The notes below the pieces were generated by a model. The model ran no database searches. It was given only the letters and a program-made list of their open reading frames with translations, and was not told the DNA's origin. Positions 4,815 to 63,404 of a DNA stretch of 64,000 nucleotides are shown in pieces (position 1 is the stretch's first letter; every line of letters begins with the position of its first letter). The DNA comes from an uncultured bacterium (GTDB lineage Bacteria; Fidelibacterota; Marinisomatia; Marinisomatales; CAZVFT01). Position numbers and translations under genes: made by a program. The DNA lies in contig CAZVFT010000002.1 in the NCBI GenBank assembly GCA_964626495.1, forward strand, positions 97 to 64,096. The letters are read 5' to 3'.

Positions 4815-5207
4815 CTATTCCGACAAATAATCTCCGATATTTTTATAGATTTCAGTTGCCATACTGAAAAACTTTTCGGCAATTTCTTTTGATGGTTTGC
4901 CGTCCGGAAGCAACCCAAGGTCAGTCGGATATCGGGAATCAATATAAAGCTCGTTTATCTGATCAAATATTTTCTGATCAACAGTTAGTTCGATATAATT
5001 TTCTATTTTTCCTCTTAAGGTTATAATACTATGGATTCTCGGTACATTATCCTCTTTTTCTTCCAATATAGCTTTGATGCTTTTCTCTATCGCTTGATGG
5101 AAATGAAAGGCTACCATATGGGTCAAATGCTCATTATGTATAATTTCTTCTATAAGAATCAGATCGTCTTCGGCTGTGTTCAGCCAATGTTCAGTCTGTC
5201 TTTTCAT
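4815..5207 (-). CDS. HEPN domain protein (HepT-like partner of the adjacent nucleotidyltransferase)
   Basis: 130-aa helical ORF (AFHFHQAIEKSIKAIL ... IDSRYP); 17-nt overlap with the upstream NTase ORF; canonical MNT-then-HEPN order. Confidence 0.75.
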   Translation of the reverse strand: MKRQTEHWLNTAEDDLILIEEIIHNEHLTHMVAFHFHQAIEKSIKAILEEKEDNVPRIHSIITLRGKIENYIELTVDQKIFDQINELYIDSRYPTDLGLLPDGKPSKEIAEKFFSMATEIYKNIGDYLSE

Positions 5208-5535
5208 ACAGCACTTTCCCCGTTTCTTTTATTTCGTTGTAAAATGAATTTTCACTTTCCGAAATAATGTCGTATTCCCCTTTTGTATAAACCACCAGAT
5301 CGATAGGAACTTTCCTACTCAGCTCGTAAATTTTTCTTCGGACCAGCAGTTTGTTCCTCATTTTTTCATCATAATTTTTTGTTATTTCCGTAGAATCTAA
5401 TACCACGATCAGTTCCAGATCACTGTCTTCTGAGAAAACTCCCCTCGCATAAGAACCAAACAAAATTATCTTATACGGATTTATCTGTCTGATATTTTTT
5501 ACTATTTCCGATAGATATTTTCTATTTTCTTCCAT
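5191..5535 (-). CDS. Minimal nucleotidyltransferase (MntA-like antitoxin candidate)
   Basis: 114-aa ORF with pol-beta-type NTase motif GSYARG-x8-SDLELIVV. Confidence 0.82.
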   Translation of the reverse strand: MEENRKYLSEIVKNIRQINPYKIILFGSYARGVFSEDSDLELIVVLDSTEITKNYDEKMRNKLLVRRKIYELSRKVPIDLVVYTKGEYDIISESENSFYNEIKETGKVLYEKTD

Positions 5536-16485: not shown

Positions 16486-18012
16486 TCAGTCTGAGAAATC
16501 ACCGAATTTAATTCCCTGAGCCAGTGGCATTTCGTGACTCCAGTTAATCGTATTTGTCTGTCGTCGCATATACGCCTTCCAAGCATCTGAACCAGCTTCT
16601 CTCCCACCTCCTGTATCCTTTTCCCCGCCGAAAGCTCCACCAATCTCGGCTCCGGACGTACCAATATTGATGTTTGCAATCCCGCAGTCGCTACCCTTAT
16701 GTGAAAGAAATTTCTCAGCGTTGATGAGATCAGTCGTAAACATCGAACTGGAAAGTCCCTGAGGAACATCGTTGTGCATTCGGATGGCATCATCAATAGA
16801 TTCATACTCGATCAGGTAGAGAATAGGAGCAAAGGTTTCTTCCTGAACAAGAGGGAAATGATTTTCAGCTTTGGCGATGGTTGGTTCTACAAAATATCCC
16901 GAACGATCCAACACCTTGCCACCGTAAAGGATCTCACCGCCTTCCTCTTTCAGACGATCAAGTGCAACTAAATATGTCTCAACAGTTGCTTGATTCACAA
17001 GAGGTCCCATCAGTACCTCTTCATCCATCGGATTTCCAATGTTGACCTGCTGATACGCATCAATGAGCATTGACGTCACTTTATCAAACTGAGATTTATG
17101 AATAAATACTCTCCGGGTGGACGTACATCTCTGCCCGGCAGTGCCAACGGCCCCGAAAACGATAGCTGGTATAGTAAGTTTGAAATCCGCTGATTCATCC
17201 ACAATAATCGCATTATTTCCGCCAAGTTCAAGAATGGTGCTACCCAGTCGATCACCCACAACCCCACCAATCCGACGTCCTATGGCTGTCGAACCTGTGA
17301 AAGATACCAGTGGAATCCTGTTATCCTTGATTAACCTTTCCCCGATCGTTTTTCCGCTGCCAATTACAAGACTAAATATGTGGGGATAGCCATTCTTTTC
17401 CAGTACTTGATTACAAATATGCTGGATGGCAATGCCACAGAGAGGTGTGGAGGATGACGGTTTCCAGATGACCGTATCACCGCAGACTGCTGCAATGAAA
17501 GCATTCCATGACCAAACAGCCACGGGGAAATTGAAAGCTGTAATAACTCCTATCGGTCCTAAAGGATGCCATTGTTCGTACATCCGATGAAGATACCGCT
17601 CCGAATGCATTGTAAGTCCATATAACTGGCGCGAAAGTCCTACTGCAAAATCAGCAATATCAATCATTTCCTGAACTTCACCATCGCCTTCAGTTTTAAT
17701 TTTTCCCATCTCCAGAGAGACAAGACTGCCAAGATTATCTTTGTTCTTTCGTAATTCCTCAGCCATTAGTCGAACCATCTCTCCCCGTTTGGGTGCTGGA
17801 ATCATTCGCCATTCCTTGAATGCTTCAATGGATTTTTCCATCACATCTTCATAATCCGATTTGGATGCCTGATAGACAGAGGCAATAACCTCCTCAATAG
17901 CAGGATTAACTGAATCCAACTTCCCTGCTGTAACAGTAGTTGACCAACCTCCAGGACCTGAACAAGCCCCTGGATTTTCCTGTTCAATACCAAGTTGTCG
18001 TAAAATGTTCAT
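16486..18012 (-). CDS. Alpha-aminoadipic semialdehyde (piperideine-6-carboxylate) dehydrogenase, ALDH7/antiquitin type
   Basis: 508 aa; ALDH7-like [25 protein letters not shown], catalytic ELGGNNA and [12 protein letters not shown]. Confidence 0.85.
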
Positions 18013-18239
18013 TATTCATTTCCTTAACTATTTTAATTCGATTGATGAGTTGTTTATTGATGAAATATTTAGAAATATAACGAGGTAAATTTAGACCAGA
18101 TGAAAAATATTTTCAAAGGAATTTGGAGTGAAAATGTAATACCTTACAGGTGATATATTTGGAGTAATGGATTTTTGGAGTAATGATCTTAATACCCATA
18201 GGTGATCCCTTTTACCAATTGAACTCAAAAAAGAGTGTA

Positions 18240-19229
18240 TTAAACAATTTCGAGGGTCGGTGAAAGATACGGGCATCTAACTTTCTGATGTTCAGCTCCC
18301 TGGACAAACTCAGGCTCGTGGACACTGCAATCGTCAGTAACAATTGAGCACCTTGGATGAAACCGGCACCCGGCAGGTAACTGATTTGCTAGAGGAACAC
18401 TACCCGGAATAATGGGTAATTTTTCAACTGTCAATTCCAAATTGGGAATGCAGCCCATCAGGGCTTTTGTATATGGATGACTGGGATGAGAAAGGATGGT
18501 GTCTGTCGGACCTTCTTCAACAATTTGTCCTGCGTACATAACCATAATTCGATCGGAAATCTTTCCCACTAAATTGATATCGTGGCTGATAAATAAAACT
18601 GACATACGCAAGGTTGATTGAAGTTCTGATAGGAGATCTACAATCTCTTCCTGAATGGTGACATCCAAGGCAGTGCTGGGTTCATCAGCGATAAGAAGTT
18701 TCGGCTGGTTGGCAAGAGCCATCGCAATCATCACTCGCTGTCGCATTCCTCCACTCAGCTCGTGAGGATAACTTTTATATCGCTGTTTAGGATCAGGTAT
18801 CTTCACAATCTTCAATAATTCCTCAGCTTTCTCTCTTGCTTCTGATTTAGTCATTGACGTGTGTGTCAGGATGGCTTCTTCAATCTGTTTCCCGCACGAC
18901 ATCACCGGGTTTAGAGAAGTCATCGGTTCCTGAAAAATCATAGCAATTTCACTGCCACGAATGGTTTCAATTTCATCGGAAGAGGATGTCAAAAGATCCC
19001 TGCCCTTGAATGTAATAATTCCGTCAACAATCTTTCCCGGGGGCTCCACCAGACCGAGAATTGATAGCGCCATCATACTTTTCCCACAACCGGATTCGCC
19101 AACGAGTCCTACGGTCTCCCCCTGATAAATAACAAAAGAAACGCCATCTACTGCACGATAGACCTCTTCGTCCTTGAAAAAGTGCGTCTTCAAATTTTTA
19201 ATGTTCAACAATGTTTTTTCATTTTTCAT
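18240..19229 (-). CDS. ABC transporter ATP-binding protein, oligopeptide/dipeptide (DppD/OppD) type, no adjacent permease
   Basis: Walker A GESGCGKS, signature LSGGMRQR, Walker [13 protein letters not shown], Cys-rich oligopeptide-type C-terminal tail. Confidence 0.88.
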
Positions 19230-19441
19230 TTTGTCTTTTTTCGTTTTCCAATTTCAATTTACAACGTTCACAGGAAGGACTTTCTGACCGGTAAAAATGA
19301 CGGTCTATTAAACCGCAAAGTGTTTTACCGTCCCTTATTATGTGAGTTTTATATTTTAGTTTATCAGGTTTCATAAATGTTTAAATAAAAGCTTTTGAAA
19401 TACTAATAATATAATAAAAGGATGGTTCAAATGAAACCAAC

Positions 19442-19477
19442 AAAAAAAGCGACGATTCTCAGGTGAAAACCGCCGCT
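19442..19477 (-). terminator. Putative intrinsic terminator closing the 27.4-19.5 kb operon
   Basis: On the minus strand, AGCGGCG-16 nt loop-CGUCGCU followed by a U-run, 43 nt after the stop of the 312-aa membrane gene. Confidence 0.5.
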
Positions 19478-19519
19478 TGAATTACATCAATCTTACAATC
19501 AAGACTGAGGTTAGTTATG

Positions 19520-20458
19520 TTACATTCCAAACGTCCGTTTCAGCGCTGGATCAATCAGCCACAGCCAATCATCCATGAGGAACTCCATACGGATAGCAAG
19601 AAGGGCAATACGTCCCATAACGGTATAACCAAAGGCAGCGCCAAAAGTAATCATCAGGAACCAGATGCCTAATTTAGCAGTTTTGCCCACAACACCCTTA
19701 TGCTCAATGGAAAAGAAGAAATAGACAATGGCTGTCAGCACACCGATGACAAGAACCAACGACCGTAATGAACCCCAGAAGTCAAATGCACCAGTCAAAC
19801 CTGTCGCCCATACTGTGATGATTGTATTTCGAATCTGGCTTAAAAAATCTGCATGTAAGAATCCGATGAGTCGAATGCCAGCGGTAGTACCAATAATAAA
19901 AGCCAGGGGCCATCGGCTGATCCAGGCACCTTTTGGTGACAGACGCATCAGAAGCATAATCCCAAGAATCAGAGGAAAGATATACATCAATTCTCTGTTT
20001 GCTTCCAGACCCGGCATTGCCCAATTATTTATCCATACAGGAAAGAGTTTGCCAAGCAGATTGGGTATAATGGTTGTCCAGAACCCAACCACCATCCAGT
20101 AAGCGGCAGAAACACCAACAACTACTGATTCAGCTATTTTGTAAAATGGATTATCCCGATAGAGAAATGACAGAATAAACAGAGTGAAAAATGCCGCTAC
20201 CCAAATCCCGATTGTTCGGGAAATACTCAACTGAAATTCAGTTTGATTGGGATTCTCAGTTATCGCTTGTTTGTATTCTTTAGGATCAGCATTTTCATAT
20301 CGAATCCATCGGTGTTCAGGAACCGGGTCATCAGGGTTTATCTCAACAGCCTGAACGTATGCCTTCCCCATTCCCTGGTTAGTAAAAAACAGTCGACCCA
20401 TCAGGAATAAACCACCAATCACCAGCAAAGTAACCCAGATAACTGTCTCACGCTTCAT
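19520..20458 (-). CDS. Multi-pass membrane protein, family not recognised (last gene of the MutL-like operon)
   Basis: 312-aa ORF with many hydrophobic spans; 1-nt overlap with the upstream gene. Confidence 0.65.
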   Translation of the reverse strand: MKRETVIWVTLLVIGGLFLMGRLFFTNQGMGKAYVQAVEINPDDPVPEHRWIRYENADPKEYKQAITENPNQTEFQLSISRTIGIWVAAFFTLFILSFLYRDNPFYKIAESVVVGVSAAYWMVVGFWTTIIPNLLGKLFPVWINNWAMPGLEANRELMYIFPLILGIMLLMRLSPKGAWISRWPLAFIIGTTAGIRLIGFLHADFLSQIRNTIITVWATGLTGAFDFWGSLRSLVLVIGVLTAIVYFFFSIEHKGVVGKTAKLGIWFLMITFGAAFGYTVMGRIALLAIRMEFLMDDWLWLIDPALKRTFGM

Positions 20459-21330
20459 CAGCGAACCTCACGTCTTTTCTCGACAAAGTAAATGACATTA
20501 GCCAAAATTATAAGAAGAATGATCAACAGATGAGCCACAAGCTGGGGACCCATTCTCCGTCTTCCCTCCAGATACTTTGGATCCGGTGTTTCACCCGCAT
20601 ATTTATCCACAACCAGTTTTTCATACTCAGCCGCTCCTTTGATAGCGCCAAGAAGTCCGGGTAACTGATCGGGGATATACGGATAAAGCAGGGGCGCTTG
20701 AACACCCGTACAACCTGCTACCAGTTTAATCTTATCTGGATATGGGGTGACAGCATATTGGACCCACTCTTTTGTACCTGCATAACCAGCGCTGATATTC
20801 ATAACAAGTTCAAAATCCTGTACACTGTGGATGTCTGCCATCATCGGAATATGATCAATGTTTGTTCCTTTGTCATCAGTCGTATAAAGCTGACGCAAGT
20901 CAGTGACAATAACTTTGATGACGCCCTCATTTCCCGGTTTGAATCCAATATTCACATAATCAATACCGTACTCCAAATGAGGGAAATCCGGTTTGATGAC
21001 CTTTTCGATAACATCGTCAATCATTTGCGGTCCCACAGGCCAGAGAGCCATAAAATATAATTTTAACCCTTTCGAGGCACAGTGATAGGTAAAAGCTGTT
21101 GCCATAGGTCCAAGTTCACCTTCACTCGCTGGATCAAAGTCAAACGATAGCAGGACTGGATCCCCTTTATCGAGTTCTTCAATAGCTCGAAATGTTTCCT
21201 CTGAAAGAATCGTGGGTACTTCGGGGAATGTCTTCCCTGTCTTCCCAACAATATAGATCGGGATAGATACAGAGATGAACATGAGCAGGAAAATCCAACG
21301 CCGATCAAGATTTTTAAAGAATTCAAACAT
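20458..21330 (-). CDS. Protein with N- and C-terminal TM helices flanking a roughly 230-aa soluble domain, family not recognised
   Basis: 290-aa ORF; TM at WIFLLMFISVSIPIYIV and LVAHLLIILLIILANVIYFV; tightly packed in the operon. Confidence 0.65.
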   Translation of the reverse strand: MFEFFKNLDRRWIFLLMFISVSIPIYIVGKTGKTFPEVPTILSEETFRAIEELDKGDPVLLSFDFDPASEGELGPMATAFTYHCASKGLKLYFMALWPVGPQMIDDVIEKVIKPDFPHLEYGIDYVNIGFKPGNEGVIKVIVTDLRQLYTTDDKGTNIDHIPMMADIHSVQDFELVMNISAGYAGTKEWVQYAVTPYPDKIKLVAGCTGVQAPLLYPYIPDQLPGLLGAIKGAAEYEKLVVDKYAGETPDPKYLEGRRRMGPQLVAHLLIILLIILANVIYFVEKRREVR

Positions 21331-21333
21331 ACA

Positions 21334-22032
21334 TCACTCCTCTCCAGTTCCCAGATAGGATCTGTCAACTCCAAGTAACACTTTTAGAGAAGTGGATGCT
21401 ATTCCTAAGGCAATGCCGATCATGATTGCTCTATTTCCTGCGGTATTAAATACACTCATAATGTAAATGGTTAGATTTTCAATTCGCAGACCACTCAAGA
21501 AATCGGGCATCCAGGAAGTAAGAAAAACACCGGCAAAAGTCCTGCCTAACAGGATAATGAATGCTGTACCGAGAAGGAGTATTGCTTCAATATTTTTTGC
21601 CCTGAAAGCACGAAAAGCGGCTGAGGCTATGTAGAATGCCAGCATAGCAAACATTGTCGCTGTGAGTGGTTTGAACGCATACTCATAGAGCCACCAGAAA
21701 GGACTCCCCAGCTCTCTGTATTCCCCCGAAAGAGGAAAATTCGGGTATAACGCACTTGGATGAACTCCAATCTTCCCCAATCCCACAATTAGTGTTCCAA
21801 TAAAAGCAACAATAGTGATGATCGAGTATCCCCATCCAGTAGCTTTGCTAGAAACCTTCTTTAAATGAATTCTAAGGAGATTACCACCCCCGAGTACGAA
21901 AGCAATGGATGCAAGGATATCAAACCAGATTGCTGCAACTTCACCCCAGTTCTGTGTTGCAGGGATGAAATAGGCAACAATAAGGACAAATCCCCCAAGT
22001 GCAGTAATAATAAGTGGAACAGTCCGTTTCAT
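21334..22032 (-). CDS. Multi-pass membrane protein, family not recognised
   Basis: 232-aa ORF with about 6 hydrophobic spans; 3-nt gap to the next gene. Confidence 0.65.
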   Translation of the reverse strand: MKRTVPLIITALGGFVLIVAYFIPATQNWGEVAAIWFDILASIAFVLGGGNLLRIHLKKVSSKATGWGYSIITIVAFIGTLIVGLGKIGVHPSALYPNFPLSGEYRELGSPFWWLYEYAFKPLTATMFAMLAFYIASAAFRAFRAKNIEAILLLGTAFIILLGRTFAGVFLTSWMPDFLSGLRIENLTIYIMSVFNTAGNRAIMIGIALGIASTSLKVLLGVDRSYLGTGEE

Positions 22033-22045
22033 TTAGATAACTTTC

Positions 22046-23239
22046 CTAGGTTAGTATAACACTTCGTAAAAATCGTACAGCATCATTTAACCAGCTGCCA
22101 AACGGTGTATCAATGCCTGCAATCATACCTACCGTTAACATCGTAACTCCAATAATGATGCCAGCCATAACGATAACTTTTCCTACATCCTGCCCCTTAA
22201 GGCTGCCAAGCTGATCAGGTTCTCCAGAAAGATAAGCCGATGCTGCAAAAAATTCCTCACCAATCAATGTGTAATCGCAGGCAGCCACAAAGAATGGGAG
22301 CTGAGCAGGCATAGCCGTTCCAGCCACCTGAATAGCACCAATGGAATTCCCCGTCTCAGCTAAAATCAGAGATTCTGCAAAAAATGCGCCCATATAAAAG
22401 CAAGCTGCTGGCTTTTCCCTGACCATCATCCCCTGAACATAAGCCACATATCCAAATTGCTCATCCGTGACGTAGTAAATATTATCCTGATTATAAGCCT
22501 CTGGTCTCCCCGCCGCAAGATAGGATGCTTGCACGGTCTCCCTTGCCGCCGTCATCACAAGCGAACGGCTGGTAGGAACTTCCACCTTTGCATCGAACTC
22601 AGCAGCAGTCTTAGCCACTCTCGATAAAACCGTAATACCAGCGATGGTCTGTATCTCATTCATATCCTGAATGCCGGCGATAAAGAGACACGAACGCCCC
22701 ATCTCTGTGGCACGACCCACCGCTTCATCCACCGCTTCTAATCCTGCTATCTTTCGAATTTTCAGCGGTCGACCTTTTCGAGCGTGATTAATCCAGTAGA
22801 AAACAGACCCACAGAAAACCAGTGTGATAATTGCCATAGAAAATCGGTTACCATCGAACCACTGCCTTGTGGGTTTAACTGCAATTTCTGTTCTGGCAGG
22901 AGTTGATTCCTGACCATCTAACCCCACTGCGGTCACCTGGAAATAGTATTCCTGGTTTCGTTTCAGCTTCTCAACAATAAACGAATTATCACCGGGAGAT
23001 AAATCGGCAACGACTATAAAAGGAGCTTTAAGTGAAGTGGAATAGTAAATTCGATAAGATTCCACAAGTTTTGAATCATCAATAGATAAGTCCCAGGATA
23101 AATCAATTTTATCTCCGTGGTCCCAGGGATGATCTTCAGCTATCAGATTAGCTGGAGGGTCGAGAGAGATTATCTCTCCAAAAGCACTGGTAATAACAAT
23201 CAATCCAAAAACAAAAACAGATGTAATAAAACGTCTCAC
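22046..23239 (-). CDS. Signal peptide + fibronectin type III domain + TM + roughly 230-aa domain + C-terminal TM protein
   Basis: 397-aa ORF; FN3-like segment (LSWDLS...YRIYYS...YYFQVTAV); 4-nt overlap with the ATPase gene. Confidence 0.7.
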   Translation of the reverse strand: MRRFITSVFVFGLIVITSAFGEIISLDPPANLIAEDHPWDHGDKIDLSWDLSIDDSKLVESYRIYYSTSLKAPFIVVADLSPGDNSFIVEKLKRNQEYYFQVTAVGLDGQESTPARTEIAVKPTRQWFDGNRFSMAIITLVFCGSVFYWINHARKGRPLKIRKIAGLEAVDEAVGRATEMGRSCLFIAGIQDMNEIQTIAGITVLSRVAKTAAEFDAKVEVPTSRSLVMTAARETVQASYLAAGRPEAYNQDNIYYVTDEQFGYVAYVQGMMVREKPAACFYMGAFFAESLILAETGNSIGAIQVAGTAMPAQLPFFVAACDYTLIGEEFFAASAYLSGEPDQLGSLKGQDVGKVIVMAGIIIGVTMLTVGMIAGIDTPFGSWLNDAVRFLRSVILT

Positions 23240-26200
23240 AATTCGTTCTTTCCTTCTCCCTCAATGAGTTCTACGTTAGCTCTCGGAATCGTAATTGGCG
23301 AACCTGAGTCAACAGAAACTTCAAGTACACGCGCTTTTGAACCTGATTCAAGTACCTGTGGCTCAGGTGGTAAACTATGAACTTTTCCGATAATTCCAAA
23401 GAAAGGATCTCGAATAATTCGAACGGGATATCCAATTTCCAATTGTCCGGACATATGATCCTTTTCATCTACCGCAGGGGGAACGGTTTCATCAACGGGA
23501 ATAACGATAACAGGTCTTATGACACCAGCTCGAATCTGGGTTGCGCCATTTATGGAAGCCTTACCTCCTTCTCTGGATTTCAGAAGATTAAATGTTCGTT
23601 CAGCCATAGCAATATTACCAAAACCCTCAGTAATAATCAAAGTTATTCCAAGGTGCTCGGAACCAGTAATAGCCACTCCCAGGTCGTATCCCAAAAATGT
23701 CTTTAGATCCTGATCATCAATACCTCCCGAAACAATGCCAGCAGCTTCCACTTCCACAGCTTTGTTAATTGCTTTTGCAGTCATTCTGGCACCACCAATG
23801 ATTACACACCCTTTCATATCCAGTGTGATATGGTCCTCAGTTATTTGCTCATCAGGAGATTCACATGCCATCTTGATTTTACCAAAAGTCTCACCCCCTA
23901 TTCCGAAAATACCCTGAACATACGTTACCTCAGATTCGATGATTACACCTTGATTTTCAATCACTTCTACAATTATCCCCGGATAAAAAGCCAGAACATT
24001 AACGGGTTGCTCCGGACCGCGAAGTATCACCTGTCCCGTCACCTCCGAAATGGTTTCAACTTTGCCAGCATCTTTACTTCTGAATTCATGCTTAAAAAAT
24101 CCAAATATCCCTTTGGTTCTTGCAAGGATATCTCCCACTTCTACTTTGTCTCCTTCTCTAACTACCATACATTCGGGAACATCTCCCGGTGGCAGTGAGA
24201 GTAAATTGGCAAGGTTGATGGGAATGACGTCACCGGGCATAAACGTTTCCGACACCACTTGCTGAGCCTCAACCAGTTCTCCAACTTTTACAACAACTTT
24301 CCCGGGAATTGGAAGAACCCGTCTTCGCTGGATAGTTGTCCGATGAGTAACTTTTAACCCGGGAGTATAAGCATGAGCCTTTTTAGGTCCAATTTCATTT
24401 GCTGTTCCTGTTTTTTCCGTATCGATTGAAATTGAAGGAGGAACGCCACTTTCTACACCCTGTTGTGTGGGATACAGATCAATATCATCAACCCACCTGC
24501 CGACAGAGATTTTAGATTGCGACTGATCTTCCGAAAGATTCAGTGGACGACCGCGACCGTCGAGAATCAACCCTACCAAACCGCCACGTACCTGTTTCTT
24601 TAATCGTTTCCCAGAACCATTTCCCACATCAAAAGATTTAGCTGGTTCAATAATAATGTCAGCTGTTTCATCTAAACCGAGAGGAAATAATTTCATCTCT
24701 CCAAATGTGATTTCTCCAGATTTATTCAGTGTCTCACCACTAATTTTATAGGAAAAGCACAACTTACCGGCTTTTGTACGACCAGCTGGAGCAATAACTG
24801 TTCCAAGGTAGATTAAGCAATCCTTTTTGAAAACTTCCATAGCAGCCTGAGGATGTACCTGAGCCAGCACACCAAGATGTGGCATCATAAAAATACTATC
24901 CTTTGCCAATGTTGTCACTCCTTCAGGCTGGAAGGCATCTATGAGAAGCAATGCAGTCTGATGCATCCTTGGTGCGTGGGAAAGAACTCCCCCTGAAGCT
25001 ACAAGAAGATTCAGTTTCATATTATCAACAATCGTCAATCCACCCATCTCTTGACTGAAAGTATCCCCCACAGATCGCTGACGCTGGACACCCTTCAAGG
25101 TGGTAGCAAATTCTTTATGCTGTTCATAAGCCAACCGAAGTGCTTCACGGGCTACCGCCTGTTCAAAAATTAATGCTTCCAATGACTGTGGGATAGTTGT
25201 TGGGCGTATCATTTTGTTTTTCACACGATTCCGAACGCTCCGCTCTTCCATTTCCAGATGTACCCACCTGAGGATATTTGGCATAGTTGTTTCAGCACAG
25301 ACGTTCGAGATGGAATAGCTCATACCAAGATTTGCACTCACAGTCCGATTAAATGTACCATCGAAGATACTGAATATATCTGTTGTGGCTCCACCTATGT
25401 CAACTCCCACCACGTTAATACCCTGCTGTTCTGCGATAGTCTGGAGAATATTCCCAACAGCTCCTGGTGTGGGCATAATTGGAGCATCTGTCCAATCCAT
25501 CAATTTATTGTAACCGGGTGCGTGTGCCATAACGTGTTCGAGAAAGAGATCGTGAATGGCATCCCGGGCGGGACCAAGATTTTCCATTTCTAATACCGGT
25601 CGCAGATTATCAACGATTGACAGGTCAAATTCTTCATTTTGAAACAGTCCTTCGATATTTGGAATGGCATCTCTGTTTCCTGCATAAATAATAGGAAGCT
25701 GGTATTGTGCACCAAATCTCGGCTGCGGTTTTGCCGGCGCCACTAGTTCTGCTATTTTAACAACGTGAGTAGTCGTCCCGCCATCGGTACCCCCGGACAG
25801 CAACATCATATCCGGACGTAAGTCGCGAATTCGTTGAATCTGCTCGTGCGGTTTCCGCCTGTCATTGGAAGCAATAATATCCATAACGATGGCACCGGCA
25901 CCAAGAGCCGCTCGCTTTGCACTGGCAACCGTCATCTCTCGAATCACACCTGCCACCATCATCTGCAGTCCACCACCAGCACTGGATGTGGAAATATAGA
26001 GATCACATCCTTCATTCTCTGTAGCCGGTTGGATAATCTTACCATTGTCATCAATCAGCCTTCGTCCAGCTAACTCTGATACCTCAGTTACCGAGTTTAT
26101 CACACCAACCGTGACGTCAGCAAAGGGCTCCTCTACCGTGGATGGAGCTTCTCCCCGATGAGTCTGGCGGTAGTGACCATCTATTTTTTGTACTAATATC

Positions 26201-26271
26201 GCTTTTGTGGTTGTACTTCCACAATCAGTAGCGAGAATAATATTCATCTTTTCAGGATCGGCTATTTTCAT
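23236..26271 (-). CDS. MutL/GlmL-like ASKHA (actin-fold) ATPase fused to a large C-terminal beta-rich module
   Basis: 1011-aa ORF; phosphate-binding motifs ILATDCGSTTTKAIL and VGVDIGGATTDIFS; C-terminal barrel-sandwich-like motifs (PGKVVVKVGELVEAQQVV, VVREGDKVEVGDILAR). Confidence 0.75.
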   Translation of the reverse strand: MKIADPEKMNIILATDCGSTTTKAILVQKIDGHYRQTHRGEAPSTVEEPFADVTVGVINSVTEVSELAGRRLIDDNGKIIQPATENEGCDLYISTSSAGGGLQMMVAGVIREMTVASAKRAALGAGAIVMDIIASNDRRKPHEQIQRIRDLRPDMMLLSGGTDGGTTTHVVKIAELVAPAKPQPRFGAQYQLPIIYAGNRDAIPNIEGLFQNEEFDLSIVDNLRPVLEMENLGPARDAIHDLFLEHVMAHAPGYNKLMDWTDAPIMPTPGAVGNILQTIAEQQGINVVGVDIGGATTDIFSIFDGTFNRTVSANLGMSYSISNVCAETTMPNILRWVHLEMEERSVRNRVKNKMIRPTTIPQSLEALIFEQAVAREALRLAYEQHKEFATTLKGVQRQRSVGDTFSQEMGGLTIVDNMKLNLLVASGGVLSHAPRMHQTALLLIDAFQPEGVTTLAKDSIFMMPHLGVLAQVHPQAAMEVFKKDCLIYLGTVIAPAGRTKAGKLCFSYKISGETLNKSGEITFGEMKLFPLGLDETADIIIEPAKSFDVGNGSGKRLKKQVRGGLVGLILDGRGRPLNLSEDQSQSKISVGRWVDDIDLYPTQQGVESGVPPSISIDTEKTGTANEIGPKKAHAYTPGLKVTHRTTIQRRRVLPIPGKVVVKVGELVEAQQVVSETFMPGDVIPINLANLLSLPPGDVPECMVVREGDKVEVGDILARTKGIFGFFKHEFRSKDAGKVETISEVTGQVILRGPEQPVNVLAFYPGIIVEVIENQGVIIESEVTYVQGIFGIGGETFGKIKMACESPDEQITEDHITLDMKGCVIIGGARMTAKAINKAVEVEAAGIVSGGIDDQDLKTFLGYDLGVAITGSEHLGITLIITEGFGNIAMAERTFNLLKSREGGKASINGATQIRAGVIRPVIVIPVDETVPPAVDEKDHMSGQLEIGYPVRIIRDPFFGIIGKVHSLPPEPQVLESGSKARVLEVSVDSGSPITIPRANVELIEGEGKNEL

Positions 26272-26334
26272 ATCTATTTCATTTGACTCTGTTCTAATTA
26301 TTATAATTTTAATACACCATTCTCAGGAAATGAA

Positions 26335-45421: not shown

Positions 45422-45730
45422 TTATGCCTTTATCTCAATATCTACTCCAGCTGGAAGATCTACTTTCATCAGAGAATCAATGGTTTTAGGTGAAGCATTT
45501 AAAATGTCAATTAACCTTTTGTGAATTTTCGTTTGGAATTGTTCACGCGATTTTTTATTCACGTGAGGTGATCTAAGCACCGTGTACACTGTACGTTTAG
45601 TTGGTAATGGAATAGGACCTAAAATCACTGCTCCCGTAGATCGGACAGTTTTAACAATTTTGTCCATAGATTTGTCCAGAAGGTTATGATCATATGCCTT
45701 CATTTTAATCCTTATTGTTTGTCCAGCCAA
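45422..45730 (-). CDS. rpsJ: 30S ribosomal protein S10 (TTG start)
   Basis: [14 protein letters not shown]...; start TTG-GCT-GGA lies inside the tuf-flank duplicated segment. Confidence 0.95.
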
Positions 45731-46940
45731 TTTGATTCTCCTTACTCAAGAATACCCGTAACAACTCCAGCTCCAACAGTGTGACCACCCTCACGAATCG
45801 CAAACCTCAACTCCTGCTCCATCGCTATCGGGGTTATCAACTCTACTTTAACGTTTACATTATCCCCTGGCATCACCATCTCTACTCCCTCTGTCAAACT
45901 CACTACACCTGTCACATCCGTCGTTCGAAAATAAAACTGAGGCCGATATCCCTCAAAAAAGGGCGTGTGACGACCTCCCTCCTCCTTCTTCAATACATAT
46001 ACCTTCGCCTCAAACTTCGTGTGGGGCGTGATACTCCCTACTGCCGATATTACCTGACCTCGCTTTAAATCATCCTTATCAACTCCCCTCAACAATAAAC
46101 CAGCATTATCTCCTGCCTGTCCCTCATCCAATATCTTACGAAACATCTCTACTCCTGTCACTACCGTCTTACTCGTCTCTCCTAATCCAACTATCTCTAC
46201 CGAATCACCTACCTTTATTATTCCTCGCTCTATCCTACCCGTTCCTACCGTACCCCGGCCCGTAATACTGAATACATCCTCAACCGGCATCAAAAATGGC
46301 TTGTCTATATCTCGCTCCGGCTCCGGTATGTAACTGTCTATCGCTTCCAATAACTCCACTATACACCGTGTCAACTCCTCATCCTCCGGATTGCTCAAAG
46401 CCTCCAACGCACTACCCTGGATTATCGGTATCTCATCACCAGGAAAATTGTACTCATCCAATAACTCACGTAACTCCAACTCCACTAACTCCAGTAACTC
46501 CGGATCATCCACCTGATCCGTCTTGTTCATAAATACCACAATAGCCGGTACATTTACCTGACGGGCTAATAATACATGCTCTCGTGTCTGGGGCATTGGA
46601 CCATCTGCCGCCGATACTACCAATACAGACCCATCCATCTGTGCCGCTCCCGTTATCATATTCTTGATGTAATCTGCATGACCCGGACAATCTATATGTG
46701 CATAATGACGATTATCCGTCTCATACTCCACATGTGCCGTCTGTATCGTTAACCCTCGCTCACGCTCCTCAGGAGCACTATCAATACTATCAAACGTACG
46801 AGCCTCTGCTAAACCACGCTTGCTTAAAAATAACGTCATCGCTGCTGTCAATGTCGTCTTACCATGATCTACATGACCTATCGTCCCTATATTTAAGTGA
46901 GGTTTCGTCCTCGAAAATTTCTCCTTTGCCATTGTGCTAT
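45722..46940. repeat. 1219-bp duplicated segment (tuf plus both flanks), copy 1
   Basis: Offset of exactly 15502 nt to 61224-62442. Identical ORF translations in several frames on both strands and the spot-checked lines indicate nucleotide identity. Confidence 0.85.
45742..46932 (-). CDS. tuf: Elongation factor Tu, copy 1 (str-operon copy)
   Basis: 396 aa; [22 protein letters not shown]; protein identical to the copy at 61244-62434. Confidence 0.97.
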
Positions 46941-46963: not shown

Positions 46964-49054
46964 TTATACTGTTATTACCCCATGGGCTTTTTCTATAATC
47001 TTGGCTTCAATTCCAGCAGGAACATCTTGATATTCCTCAAATTCCATAGAAAACACTGCTCTTCCCTGTGTAATCGATCTCAAATCTGTAGCGTACCCAA
47101 ACATCTCGCTCAAAGGAACTTTTGAATGCAAAACAACTGCATCCTTCCGATACTCAGTTCCCCTAATCCTGCCTCGTCTGGAATTTAAATCAGCCATTAC
47201 ATCTCCAATGTACTGTTCTGATAATATCACTTCGAGCTTCATCACAGGTTCTGTCAAACTGGGCTTTGCTTTTTTACAAGCCTCCTGAATAGCCATTGAA
47301 CCAGCAAATTTAAAAGCAATTTCTGATGAATCTACTTCGTGATAGGACCCATCAATAAGCTCCACCCGAATATCCTCCAAGGGATATCCAGCTAAAACCC
47401 CGTTCTTAAGAGCTTCCTGGATTCCTTGATTAACAGCTGGAATGTAGTCCCGAGGTATAACTCCACCCACTATTTTTGACTCGAAATGATATCCTTTCCC
47501 GACCTCATTTGGTTCAATTTTTATCTTAACACATCCATATTGTCCACGTCCCCCCGATTGGCGAATAAACTTCCCTTCTGCTTCCGCAGACTTTTTTATG
47601 GTCTCCCGATAAGCAACTTGAGGTCTACCTACATTGGCTCGAATATGGAATTCCCGCATCAACCTATCCACTAAAATTTCTAAATGTAACTCCCCCATTC
47701 CAGAAATTATTGTTTGATCTGTTTCACTATCCCTTTCTACTTTAAAAGTAGGGTCCTCATCAGACAGCTTTACCAACGCTTCCGATAGAATATTCTGATC
47801 TGCCTTACTTGATGGCTCAATTGTCACAGAAATTACTGGTTTCTGAAACTCCATTGATTCGAGAATAATGGGATATTTGCGATCACACAGTGTATGCCCC
47901 GTTTTTGTATGTTTCAATCCAACAGCAGCAGCAATTTCACCAGCAGTCACTTTCTCTCTCTCCTCACGCTTGTTGGCGTGCATCAATAATATACGAGATA
48001 CTCTTTCTTTCCTACCAACCGTAGAATTGTAAATTGAATCCTTTATTTTGACTTCACCTGAATAAACACGGAAAAATGTCAATCTTCCAACATAGGGATC
48101 AGACATGATTTTAAAAGCTAAAGCACTGAAGGGTTCATCTATTGAAGATTTCCTGCTTAAAGTTATATCACTATCCTCAGGTGGAAAACCAATTATCTCT
48201 TGTTTATCCATTGGAGAGGGTAGATAATCAACTATTGCATCCAGTAATCTTTGAATACCTTTATTTTTATAAGCAGATCCACACAGTACTGGAATAAAGG
48301 CATTATCTAAACATCCTTTTCGAATAGCATTTTTAATTTCCTCTGCAGTCAAATCTTTCCCGGCGAGATATTTCTCAAAAAGCTGTTCATCGTATGCTGC
48401 AATTTCCTCCACCAACTTGTGGCGGGCTTCCTCAACTTCCTCTACCATATCATTAGGAATATCAATAAGTTCAAAATGAGAGCCGAGACTGGGTTCATAA
48501 TAAACAATTGCTTTCATAGAAATTAAATCCACAATACCCGTAAATAAATCACCTGCCCCAATAGGTAAAACAAGAAGCAAAGGTTTTGCATTCAAACGGT
48601 GTTTCATCATATGAATTACTTCATAAAAATCAGCTCCCATCCGATCCATTTTATTTACAAAAGCAACTCGTGGAACTTTATATCTGTCTGCTTGACGCCA
48701 GACTGTCTCACTTTGGGGCTCTACCCCTCCTACTGCACAAAATACTACAATCCCACCATCGAGAACTCTTAACGAGCGTTCGACTTCAGCAGTAAAGTCT
48801 ATGTGACCCGGTGTATCAATGATGTTAATCCGATGTTCATTCCAAAAAGTAGTGGTTGCTGCTGAAGTAATGGTAATACCACGTTCCCTTTCTTGATCCA
48901 TCCAATCCATTGCTGTAGAACCCTCGTGCACCTCACCCATACGATGTAAACGTCCTGTATAGAACAAAATCCGTTCTGTCGTTGTTGTCTTACCCGCATC
49001 AATATGAGCCATGATGCCAATGTTTCTTACTCTTTCTAAAGGTGACTTCTTCAT
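46964..49054 (-). CDS. fusA: Elongation factor G
   Basis: 696 aa; [25 protein letters not shown]. Confidence 0.97.
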
Positions 49055-61067: not shown

Positions 61068-61232
61068 TTACCGAGTTTCCTTAAAAATCACATGCTTTTT
61101 TGCAACAGGATCGTACTTTTTATATTCTACACGCTCAGGATGATTTTGCTTATTTTTTGTGGTAGTATATCTATATCCTGTACCTGCAGTACTTTGCAAT
61201 GTTATCGTTGTTCTTTTACTCCTTCCAGCCAA
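61068..61232 (-). CDS. rpmG: 50S ribosomal protein L33 (Cys-less form, TTG start)
   Basis: Not in the ORF track. Hand translation gives (M)[53 protein letters not shown]; SD GGAG lies upstream. Confidence 0.88.
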
Positions 61233-62442
61233 TTTGATTCTCCTTACTCAAGAATACCCGTAACAACTCCAGCTCCAACAGTGTGACCACCCTCACGAAT
61301 CGCAAACCTCAACTCCTGCTCCATCGCTATCGGGGTTATCAACTCTACTTTAACGTTTACATTATCCCCTGGCATCACCATCTCTACTCCCTCTGTCAAA
61401 CTCACTACACCTGTCACATCCGTCGTTCGAAAATAAAACTGAGGCCGATATCCCTCAAAAAAGGGCGTGTGACGACCTCCCTCCTCCTTCTTCAATACAT
61501 ATACCTTCGCCTCAAACTTCGTGTGGGGCGTGATACTCCCTACTGCCGATATTACCTGACCTCGCTTTAAATCATCCTTATCAACTCCCCTCAACAATAA
61601 ACCAGCATTATCTCCTGCCTGTCCCTCATCCAATATCTTACGAAACATCTCTACTCCTGTCACTACCGTCTTACTCGTCTCTCCTAATCCAACTATCTCT
61701 ACCGAATCACCTACCTTTATTATTCCTCGCTCTATCCTACCCGTTCCTACCGTACCCCGGCCCGTAATACTGAATACATCCTCAACCGGCATCAAAAATG
61801 GCTTGTCTATATCTCGCTCCGGCTCCGGTATGTAACTGTCTATCGCTTCCAATAACTCCACTATACACCGTGTCAACTCCTCATCCTCCGGATTGCTCAA
61901 AGCCTCCAACGCACTACCCTGGATTATCGGTATCTCATCACCAGGAAAATTGTACTCATCCAATAACTCACGTAACTCCAACTCCACTAACTCCAGTAAC
62001 TCCGGATCATCCACCTGATCCGTCTTGTTCATAAATACCACAATAGCCGGTACATTTACCTGACGGGCTAATAATACATGCTCTCGTGTCTGGGGCATTG
62101 GACCATCTGCCGCCGATACTACCAATACAGACCCATCCATCTGTGCCGCTCCCGTTATCATATTCTTGATGTAATCTGCATGACCCGGACAATCTATATG
62201 TGCATAATGACGATTATCCGTCTCATACTCCACATGTGCCGTCTGTATCGTTAACCCTCGCTCACGCTCCTCAGGAGCACTATCAATACTATCAAACGTA
62301 CGAGCCTCTGCTAAACCACGCTTGCTTAAAAATAACGTCATCGCTGCTGTCAATGTCGTCTTACCATGATCTACATGACCTATCGTCCCTATATTTAAGT
62401 GAGGTTTCGTCCTCGAAAATTTCTCCTTTGCCATTGTGCTAT
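61224..62442. repeat. 1219-bp duplicated segment (tuf plus both flanks), copy 2
   Basis: See copy 1 at 45722-46940. Confidence 0.85.
61244..62434 (-). CDS. tuf: Elongation factor Tu, copy 2 (tRNA-tuf-rpmG-secE copy)
   Basis: Protein 100% identical to the copy at 45742-46932. Confidence 0.97.
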
Positions 62443-62467
62443 TCCTCCTATTTATATCAGTTAACTG

Positions 62468-62540
62468 AGCCTACGACCGGACTTGAACCGGTGACCCCGT
62501 CCTTACCAAGGACGTGCTCTACCGACTGAGCTACGTAGGC
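62468..62540 (-). tRNA. tRNA-Thr (GGT)
   Basis: 73-nt cloverleaf: GCCTACG acceptor, anticodon loop CTTGGTAAG context, T-loop TTCAAGT. Confidence 0.9.
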
Positions 62541-62600
62541 ACAAGAATTAATGTGCCTGATAAATAAAGATTCGAGCGAGTAACCTGTCTGTCTGACAGG

Positions 62601-62622
62601 GAACTCTCGACCCTCAGCTTGA
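62601..62622 (-). pseudogene. tRNA-Gly-derived fragment (anticodon-stem 3' strand / variable / T-stem)
   Basis: GAACTCTCGACCCTCAGCTTGA versus GAACTCGCGACCCTCAGCTTGGA in the adjacent tRNA-Gly; the flanks do not fold into a cloverleaf. Confidence 0.4.
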
Positions 62623-62644
62623 CTGCCCGGTGATTTCCATTGTG

Positions 62645-62717
62645 AGCGGCGGACGAGGTTCGAACTCGCGACCCTCAGCTTGGAAGGCTGATGCTCTACC
62701 AACTGAGCTACCACCGC
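62645..62717 (-). tRNA. tRNA-Gly (TCC)
   Basis: 73-nt cloverleaf: GCGGTGG acceptor, anticodon loop CTTCCAA, T-loop TTCGAAC. Confidence 0.9.
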
Positions 62718-62843
62718 ATTTTCTTGATATGCGGATAAAACTGACGTTCTATTCCCTATTCCATTCATAAAGTTACACCTATACAGTTGTTATCATAACA
62801 GACATAAACCTTAAAAAAATATCGATATTTTTCCATTATTACG

Positions 62844-62926
62844 TGGGGAGAGATGGATTTGAACCACCGAAGGCTCTCGCCGCCAGATTTACAGTCTGGT
62901 GCATTTGACCGCTCTGCCACCTCCCC
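62844..62926 (-). tRNA. tRNA-Tyr (GTA)
   Basis: 83-nt class II tRNA: GGGGAGG acceptor, anticodon loop CTGTAAA, long variable arm, T-loop TTCAAAT. Confidence 0.9.
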
Positions 62927-63006
62927 AAATTTTCAGATCGATTCAAATTATCCCTCTATACCATTGAGCCACCGGAGAGACTCATATGATGGAGTTCCTG
63001 TGGAAG

Positions 63007-63026
63007 ACCCCTCAACCTGCTGATTA
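63007..63026 (-). pseudogene. tRNA-Thr(TGT)-derived fragment
   Basis: ACCCCTCAACCTGCTGATTA versus ACCCCCAACCTGCTGATTA of the adjacent tRNA-Thr (one indel); no cloverleaf. Confidence 0.4.
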
Positions 63027-63042
63027 TTTCGACATGCATCAG

Positions 63043-63115
63043 AGCCGATAGAGGGACTTGAACCCCCAACCTGCTGATTACAAATCAGCTGCTCTACCAG
63101 TTGAGCTATATCGGC
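63043..63115 (-). tRNA. tRNA-Thr (TGT)
   Basis: 73-nt cloverleaf: GCCGATA acceptor, anticodon loop ATTTGTAAT context, T-loop TTCAAGT. Confidence 0.9.
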
Positions 63116-63332
63116 ATGTCGGGACTTTATGGTAGTATCACGAGATTCCACCCAGTGACATTCACCTGTTAATAGAGACATACCATCCATTTTCAAATAA
63201 ATATTTTTCATCGACGTTAATGTGTATAAAATTAAATAAAGCGATATAGTTTCTAATTTTAAATAAAATAAATATAAATAACAAATTATTTTTTACCGTT
63301 TTTACCGAGTCTACTAGATTAAGAGTAAAACG

Positions 63333-63404
63333 TAGCGCGTACGGGAATCGAACCCGTGTTTCCGGCTTGAGAGGCCGACGTCCTAACCCCTAGACGAACG
63401 CGCC
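63333..63404 (-). tRNA. tRNA-Glu (CTC)
   Basis: 72-nt cloverleaf: GGCGCGT acceptor, Glu-type D-arm TCGTCTAGGGGTTAGGAC, anticodon loop CTCTCAA, T-loop TTCGATT. Confidence 0.85.

Follow-up and report, generated by a model that had tools for sequence, protein, structure and literature searches.

The closest described counterparts of the genes considered here are the tufA and tufB genes of Salmonella and Escherichia coli, which encode the elongation factor EF-Tu. The preferred codons of enteric tuf include ATC, ACC or ACT, GAA and AAA, and gene conversion between tufA and tufB was reportedly described by Abdulkarim and Hughes in 1996; a second, xenologous tuf is said to have been found in Enterococcus species by Ke et al. 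in 2000. For Leu and Val the enteric genes prefer CTG and GTT, and the cost measured for each tuf codon is in line with the model of Bulmer, under which cost scales with protein abundance (Brandis & Hughes 2016, PMC4786093). A survey of optimal codons among bacteria (Satapathy et al. 2016, PMC5066170) found that in two-fold families ending in a pyrimidine (NNY) the C-ending codon is optimal in all genomes, that the A-ending codons of Lys and Gln are optimal in low-GC genomes except Spirochaetes, that AUA is generally not optimal, some Firmicutes excepted, and that selection does not favour codons ending in G for Thr, Val or Ala; for Glu, Lys and Gln the optimal codon ends in G in low-GC Spirochaetes, and in Actinobacteria GAG is optimal, together with a tRNA-Glu(C34). 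The present analysis concerns the tuf gene at 61244..62434 (minus strand) of a 64,000-nucleotide stretch of DNA (contig CAZVFT010000002.1, positions 97 to 64,096), hereafter called the window, and its second copy at 45742..46932 (minus strand). Judged by its protein sequences the host is a Marinimicrobia (SAR406) bacterium, and the codon usage of its tuf is a very strong anomaly among the genes of the window.

The gene encodes an EF-Tu of 396 amino acids, and its codons were counted on the coding (minus) strand. Ile is encoded by ATA in 19 of 27 cases (ATT 5, ATC 3) and Thr by ACG in 21 of 30 (ACA 7, ACC 1, ACT 1), while GAG, used 39 times beside a single GAA, is the commonest codon of the whole gene (39/396). 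Lys is written with 15 AAG and three AAA, Gln with ten CAG and no CAA, and Leu with 15 TTA and 16 TTG (31/33 together) and only two CTN codons; Phe is TTT in 13 of 14 cases and Asp is GAT in 24 of 26. A preliminary description of this DNA had given counts or preferences for Ile, Thr, Glu, Lys and Leu, all of which hold on recounting. Two of the three AAA codons stand at positions 5 and 10, which fits separate selection on the initiation region. At third codon positions the composition of tuf is G 0.39, C 0.058, A 0.25 and T 0.30. The same description had called the mRNA strikingly C-poor. The frequency of C at third positions (C3) is 5.8%, compared with 11-13% elsewhere; overall, C makes up 13.6% of the coding strand (which is the G of the plus strand), rather than the approximately 10% that had been stated. 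The coding strand is 61% purine, with a strong excess of G over C. Long stop-free shadow frames had also been described on the opposite strand, but the antisense frames have 8-15 stops each and their longest open stretch is 108 codons.

None of these preferences is a property of the region. The GC content of tuf is 46.5%, compared with approximately 39-40% for the genome region, and its GC content at third positions (GC3) is 0.45, compared with approximately 0.31 in its neighbours. G at third positions (G3) lies between 0.12 and 0.28 in all 60 other long open reading frames of the window, compared with 0.39 in tuf, whereas T at third positions (T3) is lower in tuf (0.30 versus 0.38). The earlier contrast between tuf and its neighbours, drawn by eye, is thus upheld, and it extends to the other genes that might be expected to be highly expressed: the pooled ribosomal protein genes (4600 codons; GAG 0.32, ATA 0.20, ACG 0.14, AAG 0.36) are practically identical to 29 genes without a role in translation (GAG 0.31, ATA 0.20, ACG 0.14, AAG 0.31), and in a pooled comparison within the window the codon fractions of fusA and rpoBC resemble those of bulk genes, so that none of them has the tuf profile. 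Tests of tuf against the rest, family by family, gave p = 8e-18 for Glu, 4e-16 for Thr, 7e-9 for Ile, 1e-6 for Leu, 2e-5 for Lys and 3e-5 for Val. Scored by the log-likelihood of its codons, tuf stands 10.5 standard deviations away from all other genes, and no gene of the window has a more outlying composition, while ribosomal protein genes differ at most marginally from the remaining genes (-0.443 versus -0.478, p = 0.07). The anomaly is therefore confirmed as real and very strong, and among the genes of the window the set ATA, ACG, GAG, AAG, CAG and TTG belongs to tuf alone.

The shift follows codons rather than bases. The six NNY two-fold families (Asp, Phe, Asn, His, Tyr and Cys), each served by one G34-type tRNA, show no significant shift in three Marinimicrobia lineages, including that of the window; when these families are pooled for the window, C-ending codons number 12/71 in tuf and 824/3501 elsewhere (p = 0.26), and the C-ending preference reported for all surveyed bacteria is not seen in tuf. 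Families with several isoacceptors, in contrast, shift at p = 1e-5 to 1e-18, and they do so in different directions: Thr, Pro, the four-codon Ser box and Ala move toward G-ending codons, Ile and Val toward A-ending ones, Leu from CTN to TTR, and Ser toward AGT. The Thr box is 70% G-ending while the Gly box is unchanged, and AGA, which accounts for 27% of Arg codons elsewhere, is absent from tuf (0/22), being replaced by CGT and CGA. This heterogeneity argues for a shift specific to codons and isoacceptors that does not track base composition. The preference had been called unexpected, and it does depart from the published rules for optimal codons (PMC5066170).

We then asked where such a gene could have come from. 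The nearest EF-Tu, at 98% identity, is P0003, encoded in locus L089 of the metagenome-assembled genome (MAG) GCA_014381485.1 and named 'Candidatus Marinimicrobia bacterium' by NCBI; a large group follows at 84-86%, assigned, wherever the source gives a name, to Candidatus Marinimicrobia or Neomarinimicrobiota, and among the matches listed the best locus outside the Marinimicrobia reaches at most 79%. In L089 the neighbours of tuf are approximately 97% identical to the window genes. Over approximately 90 loci, the ranking of EF-Tu by identity to the window protein is that of fusA, rpsJ, rplC, rplB, rpoB, rplA, rplK and nusG, so that EF-Tu is congruent with EF-G and the ribosomal proteins as judged by identity ranking rather than by a tree, and the ratio of amino-acid divergence in tuf to that in its neighbours is similar at two evolutionary depths. 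Both copies of tuf occupy canonical positions, in the str operon and in the order tRNA-tuf-rpmG-secE-nusG, with no mobile elements. These relationships indicate that the codon anomaly is most likely a native, vertically inherited trait of Marinimicrobia tuf and not of foreign origin.

The trait is also found in relatives. In L089, tuf has GAG 39/39, ATA 20/27 and ACG 22/29, and in the further Marinimicrobia lineages that we sampled (L091, L092/93, L094/95 and L096, with genome GC contents of 39-48%) the fractions in tuf are 0.69-1.0 for GAG, 0.77-1.0 for AAG and 1.0 for CAG; ACG, TTG and CGT are raised, AGA is reduced, and the ribosomal protein genes remain near the bulk. Five Marinimicrobia lineages thus share a bias confined to tuf. 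The preference for ATA, GTA and TTA is strongest in the low-GC lineage of the window (ATA 0.70-0.74), weak in L091 (ATA 0.34) and absent in the GC-richer lineages. In the higher-GC L092, the ribosomal protein genes show a small shift for AAG and hardly any for GAG. Vectors of per-codon log-ratios (tuf over the remaining genes) show correlations of r = 0.41-0.94 inside the phylum and of approximately 0.7 with a Glassbacteria MAG (L015; GAG 0.97, ACG 0.74, ATA 0.59) and an unclassified MAG (L002), but negative ones with Pedobacter, Bacillales and Helicobacter. In an outgroup panel, made up of the EF-Tu matches listed at 68-79% identity and drawn from many phyla, tuf G3 exceeds that of its neighbours by at least 0.11 at 16 of 45 loci, at several of which the ribosomal protein genes do not follow tuf; the window genome has the largest distance between tuf and bulk codon usage in that small sample. 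The phenomenon is accordingly broader than the window genome, and two regimes of tuf codon preference appear to exist among bacteria. A search of the literature on Marinimicrobia codon usage, and on tuf genes that prefer ATA or codons ending in G, brought up no specific report.

Among the loci of that panel we observed that L015, L002, L028, L069, L044, L037, L046, L030 and others have a tuf G3 0.11-0.26 above that of their neighbours, with ACG as the main Thr codon. Lineages with raised G3 in tuf are many, unrelated and mostly uncultured, comprising Glassbacteria and alpha-, beta- and gammaproteobacterial, acidobacterial and deltaproteobacterial MAGs; the opposite, classical preference is seen in tuf of Bacteroidota, Bacillales, Helicobacter and Spirochaetes.

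A comparison of synonymous divergence was made between the window and its approximately 97% identical relative, setting tuf (L089 10001..11191) against 22 neighbouring genes. Among Glu, Lys, Gln, Ile and Leu codons, synonymous differences number 3/125 in tuf and 112/1733 in the neighbours, and in the NNY families they number 1/70 and 53/849; combined, these classes give 4/195 in tuf compared with approximately 6.4% in the neighbours. The low divergence of the strongly biased families suggests that purifying selection may act on the synonymous codons of tuf. The 52 nucleotide differences between the two tuf genes are spread evenly along the gene and amino-acid divergence is not elevated, which makes an imported older allele unlikely. 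A second close pair, L094 and L095, proved to belong to one organism, each gene having 0-1 synonymous differences, and was not usable for this rate test.

The two copies in the window are identical in coding sequence and codon usage. They lie in a perfect repeat of 1219 bp (61224..62442 and 45722..46940) that comprises the coding sequence plus 8 nt before its ATG and 20 nt after its stop codon, outside which the flanks are unrelated, with identity at the random level. The copy at 61244..62434 has a tufB-like context (tRNA cluster, tuf, rpmG, tRNA-Trp, secE, nusG) and that at 45742..46932 a tufA-like one (rpsL, rpsG, fusA, tuf, rpsJ). Downstream of the former lies rpmG (61068..61232, minus strand), encoding an L33 protein of 54 amino acids, for which a Pfam L33 match was obtained at the homologous position in L091; downstream of the latter, rpsJ (45422..45730, minus strand) starts 14 nt past the tuf stop and has ordinary codons (G3 0.18), showing that the anomaly ends sharply at the boundary of the coding sequence. 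On the other side fusA (46964..49054, minus strand), which ends 31 nt before tuf, is essentially bulk-like (G3 0.21), with slight shifts in the direction of tuf for GAG, TTG and GTA only. Because the conversion tract reaches 20 nt past the stop, the unrelated genes rpsJ and rpmG have in common a ribosome-binding site (GGAG), a TTG start and their first two codons, GCT GGA (45722..45741; 61224..61243). The conversion of a second copy that had been proposed is borne out by this homogenized tract, and identical copies of this kind fit the classic picture of concerted evolution of tufA and tufB by gene conversion. In L094 and L095, from another Marinimicrobia lineage, we observed that the copies in tufA and tufB contexts differ by two amino acids with no synonymous differences. 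A scan for promoters and terminators around the copy at 61244..62434 gave nothing above the shuffled expectation.

The tRNA genes seen for this organism number eight, counting the window and the adjoining sequence L098; at the gathering threshold, Rfam gave seven tRNAs and no other family in the whole window. Upstream of the tufB-like copy is a conserved cluster (62467..63115, all on the minus strand) of tRNA-Thr(UGU) at 63042..63115, tRNA-Tyr(GUA) at 62843..62926, tRNA-Gly(UCC) at 62644..62717 and tRNA-Thr(GGU) at 62467..62540, the last directly upstream of tuf; the order is the same as in the thrU-tyrU-glyT-thrT-tufB cluster of E. coli. Immediately upstream of the cluster lies a gene for tRNA-Glu(CUC) (63332..63404, minus strand), a C34 isoacceptor that reads only GAG. 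It is found beside the cluster also in L082, and a comparison of that position showed it to be absent there in the Marinimicrobia L091-L094 and, from other phyla, in L015, L012 and L019. The lineage of the window, with this gene near tuf, has among the most extreme usages of GAG in tuf (39/40, and 39/39 in L089). A further C34 tRNA, tRNA-Arg(CCG), is encoded just outside the left edge of the window (L098 11212..11284), so that this low-GC genome keeps at least these two C34 tRNAs. Beyond tRNA-Arg(CCG) in L098 we noted a variable region with AbiEii-like, PDDEXK and DUF4325 genes; the sequence past the left end of the window encodes HlyIII, small open reading frames, AbiEii-like proteins and sugar-modifying enzymes, with no informative highly expressed gene.

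Taken together, we consider it probable, although with considerable room for doubt, that the codon anomaly of tuf is native and inherited and is kept by selection on synonymous codons acting through the tRNAs that decode them, and that neither base composition nor foreign origin accounts for it. The mRNA for EF-Tu is normally the most heavily translated in bacteria, and we infer that it is so here; selection per synonymous codon would then be strongest in tuf, and in a slow-growing, AT-biased lineage selection might overcome drift essentially in tuf alone. The favoured codons would be those that bulk genes seldom use and that separate isoacceptors read, with ATA decoded by tRNA-Ile2, with ACG, GAG, AAG, CAG, CCG, TCG and TTG decoded by C34 tRNAs, assuming a full tRNA set, and with GTA and TTA decoded by U34 tRNAs; AGT, and CGT or CGA in place of AGA, would also belong to the set, and the families served by a single tRNA (Asp, Phe, Asn, His, Tyr and Cys) would remain untouched. 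In the form of this explanation that we prefer, the supply of charged tRNA relative to demand would be greatest for isoacceptors in low demand, above all under chronic amino-acid limitation ('selective charging'), and it is this ratio that selection would favour; EF-Tu translated with them might be made fastest and with least competition with the rest of the proteome, and gene conversion, by keeping the copies identical, would ensure that both carry the same codon set. In E. coli, the isoacceptors for ACG, UUG and AGC are the least sensitive to amino-acid starvation, GCA and GCG have a low predicted sensitivity, and such starvation-insensitive codons favour very high expression (Welch et al. 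2009, PMC2736378); that these tRNAs stay best charged under limitation is, in the passages of that paper that cite Elf 2003 and Dittmar 2005, predicted for E. coli and, for Thr and Leu, measured. When an assumed standard bacterial decoding table is used, the rule that low-demand isoacceptors are favoured fits Ile, Thr, Pro, Glu, Lys and Gln and, in part, Leu (TTG) and Ser; Val and Ala fit weakly, and Arg, Gly and the CTR codons of Leu fail.

Several observations weigh against this explanation. There is no gradient with expression: 27-28 ribosomal protein genes, fusA and rpoBC are indistinguishable from the bulk on the axis that separates tuf, with log odds ratios in the ribosomal protein genes of 0.07 +/- 0.15 for GAG, -0.01 +/- 0.15 for ATA and 0.00 +/- 0.22 for ACG, compared with 4.1, 2.2 and 2.6 in tuf, and with only small shifts for AAG (0.24), GTA (0.39) and CGT (0.30). 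By our own estimate from E. coli and Salmonella figures, EF-Tu is translated approximately 3-10 times more per gene than a ribosomal protein, a ratio that predicts a visible shift in the ribosomal protein genes; a balance of selection, mutation and drift would need a ratio of at least 15-20, or some factor specific to tuf. The low-demand rule is also at odds with the Arg codons read by the ICG anticodon, which are in high demand, with the unshifted Gly box and with the disuse of CTA and CTG, which are in low demand; likewise, although the cluster member next to tuf is tRNA-Thr(GGU), the codons that it reads, ACT and ACC, account for only two of 30. Finally, four-fold degenerate sites differ between the window and L089 approximately 2.5 times more often in tuf than in its neighbours (36/147 versus 155/1599, p = 1e-6), with Gly at 33%, Val at 26% and Thr at 28%. 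Simple purifying selection would not predict such an excess, which hints at more frequent mutation or at codon turnover; a heavily transcribed gene could mutate faster while purifying selection stays strong at its other sites, or nearly equivalent codons could be replacing one another.

The lack of a shift in the ribosomal protein genes would be explained by a more specific proposal, which we offer tentatively and think rather doubtful. A codon set private to tuf and decoded by tRNA-Ile2 and C34 tRNAs could decouple the synthesis of EF-Tu from that of the bulk and ribosomal proteins when charged tRNA is scarce, and would then be a regulatory or economic adaptation to chronic amino-acid limitation rather than ordinary optimal-codon bias, present also in other uncultured, probably slow-growing lineages, with tRNA-Glu(CUC) recruited beside the cluster.

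The excess at four-fold sites is also what would be looked for if heavy transcription left the non-template strand of tuf open to deamination (C to T and A to G), or raised the mutation rate of tuf in general, so that G and T were gained without selection. The strong skew of G over C on the coding strand points the same way, as does tuf in L092 and L093, where G3 and T3 are enriched and A3 and C3 depleted, the keto skew that is expected. However, the NNY families, in which C-to-T is the sole synonymous change, are unshifted in three lineages; T3 falls in tuf of the window, and the changes in Ile and Val are mainly from T to A. Nor would such a process leave the Gly box alone while the Thr box becomes 70% G-ending, or turn AGA into CGT and CGA, and the strongly biased families diverge more slowly than the neighbours. 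The anomaly stops, moreover, at the ends of the coding sequence, and the adjacent fusA and rpsJ, which are possibly co-transcribed with tuf, are normal. This heterogeneity between families, together with the normal fusA and rpsJ, argues against transcription-linked mutation, which we regard as an unlikely cause, and equally against cytosine avoidance and purine loading.

The last two belong to a further class of explanation, in which selection acts on an abundant and long-lived mRNA independently of tRNAs, for example for purine loading, for few cytosines, for weak folding or for the absence of motifs cut by RNases or toxins. Purine-ending codons do make up 77% of the Ile, Thr, Val, Ala, Pro, Leu and Ser codons of tuf, compared with 43-46% elsewhere, and the low C3 and high purine content described above are of the kind that such selection would produce. 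In Gly and Arg, however, purine-ending codons fall (54% versus 63-65%) and the all-purine AGA is eliminated; the strongest shifts, GAA to GAG, AAA to AAG, CAA to CAG and ACA to ACG, leave the purine content unchanged, and a higher-GC relative shows the shift to NAG codons without purine enrichment at third positions. The purine loading and C avoidance put forward earlier do not, as stated, survive these observations and the unshifted NNY families. Local folding energy was compared with that of 60 versions of tuf recoded with bulk codons and 60 synonymous shuffles; the mean for tuf is -23.8 kcal/mol per 120 nt, compared with -23.9 +/- 1.1 for the recoded versions (z = 0.1), and it does not differ from the shuffles either (z = 0.76), so that a hypothesis based on mRNA structure was rejected. 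In a motif test against shuffles of the gene's own codons, which addresses only their arrangement, Shine-Dalgarno-like sequences and ACA (the MazF site) were not below expectation and most motifs, among a set that also included GATC and homopolymer runs, were unremarkable; CG was clearly lower (z = -4.1), TA (UA in the mRNA) slightly lower (z = -2.4) and GGAG slightly above (z = 2.2). The observed/expected ratio of UA is higher in tuf, at 1.08, than in other genes, at 0.71. We therefore give mRNA-level selection little credence.

Horizontal replacement of tuf, followed by conversion of the second copy and with the codon usage of the donor not yet ameliorated, was among the explanations first proposed. 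It would account for a GC-rich gene in an AT-rich region, for two identical copies and for the outlying composition, but ATA, GTA and TTA are not codons that a GC-richer donor would be expected to enrich. The closest EF-Tu proteins are all from Marinimicrobia, their ranking is congruent with that of neighbours including fusA, rpsJ, rplB, rpoB, rplK and nusG, the relative divergence of tuf is the same at two depths, and both copies occupy canonical operon positions without mobile elements. The same bias, scaled to genome GC, occurs in five lineages. Tuf may conceivably have been transferred long ago, when the phylum arose, or between its members since, but neither event would explain why the codon set persists. 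We consider replacement very improbable and the earlier suggestion to be unsupported.

GC-biased gene conversion between the copies, tuf being the only duplicated protein gene here, would push synonymous sites toward G and C, and both the perfect 1219-bp tract and the raised GC3 could be read in this way; the process is strand-symmetric, though, and the fall of C3 as G3 rises argues against it, as do NNY families that do not move toward C and the rise of the A-ending ATA, GTA and TTA, so that it has only a slender chance of being correct. An assembly artefact, a chimeric contig or an engineered sequence, the last two also raised earlier, is scarcely credible: although some public contigs are misjoined across the repeat, at least 24 contigs, drawn from marine metagenomes that were assembled independently (ENA, JGI and others), encode the identical EF-Tu protein, both contexts are recovered separately (L081, L082), and the relative at 98% identity, from an NCBI MAG, shares the codon set, with evenly spread differences.

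The misjoined contigs are themselves of practical concern. Owing to the identical 1.2-kb copies, the two contexts have been joined chimerically in some public metagenome assemblies, giving fusA-tuf-nusG in L083 and L084 and tRNAs-tuf-rpsJ in L092; such joins would delete approximately 14 kb of essential genes, and the repeat is a recurrent hazard of misassembly for these MAGs.

Three other features of the window may be mentioned. A pair of HEPN and MNT-type nucleotidyltransferase genes (4815..5207 and 5191..5535, minus strand), for which Pfam matches were obtained on the identical genes of L098, resembles a toxin-antitoxin module and sits between rplT and pheS in an otherwise conserved thrS-infC-rpmI-rplT-pheST cluster. 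Ribosomal protein L5 (39243..40094, minus strand) has 283 amino acids, with a Lys/Glu-rich N-terminal extension of approximately 100 residues; in other Marinimicrobia its length is 240-242 (L092, L095, L096) or 206 (L097) amino acids. A block at approximately 16500..26300 has a GC content of 0.43-0.45, compared with 0.35-0.40 in the rest of the window, and a higher C3; it contains open reading frames at 16486..18012 and 18240..19229, probable membrane proteins and a protein of 1012 amino acids (23236..26271).

The codon adaptation index, the tRNA adaptation index and growth predictors based on ribosomal protein genes assume one shared preferred set, in which NNC codons are favoured and AUA is poor. 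In the window, what is presumably the single most translated gene uses an unconventional set, and the ribosomal protein genes show none. Should this be general, predictions of growth or expression from ribosomal protein genes in oligotrophic MAGs would miss the only gene with visible selection, and tuf could reveal the tRNAs that are in effect 'best' in uncultivable organisms; if selective charging is the cause, the gene would illustrate, in nature, how codon choice is matched to the supply of charged tRNA under nutrient limitation. Tests for compositional outliers would wrongly flag this tuf as horizontally transferred.

In comparison with known systems, the gene resembles the Spirochaetes and Actinobacteria cases in that GAG, AAG and CAG are preferred despite a low GC content, in that the trait follows phylogeny and in that a gene for tRNA-Glu(CUC) is present, but it breaks the surveyed rules for AUA, for G-ending Thr, Val and Ala codons and for C-ending NNY codons, and the preference resides in one gene rather than in the highly expressed class as a whole. 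With E. coli and its starvation-robust codons it shares an enrichment in ACG, TTG, AGY, TCG and GCA/GCG and, as the theory of selective charging would have it, unaffected single-isoacceptor families; that theory and its data, however, concern the tRNA pool of E. coli and biosynthetic or heterologous genes rather than native tuf, and Arg, Gly and the CTR codons of Leu do not fit. As in the reported case of Enterococcus, there are two tuf genes in one genome and a compositional oddity, but here both copies are identical, stand in canonical contexts and group with their own phylum. The likeness to tufA and tufB of Salmonella and E. coli extends to tuf as the site of the strongest synonymous selection, to two copies in str-operon and tRNA-tufB contexts and to their identity, or near-identity, over the coding region only; in contrast to the enteric genes, ATA, ACG, GAG, AAG, TTG/TTA and GTA are preferred here, a nearly opposite set, with no preference for C in NNY families and with ribosomal protein genes that lack the bias. 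The anomaly is thus a known phenomenon, selected codon bias in tuf together with conversion between tufA and tufB, with an unusual codon content.

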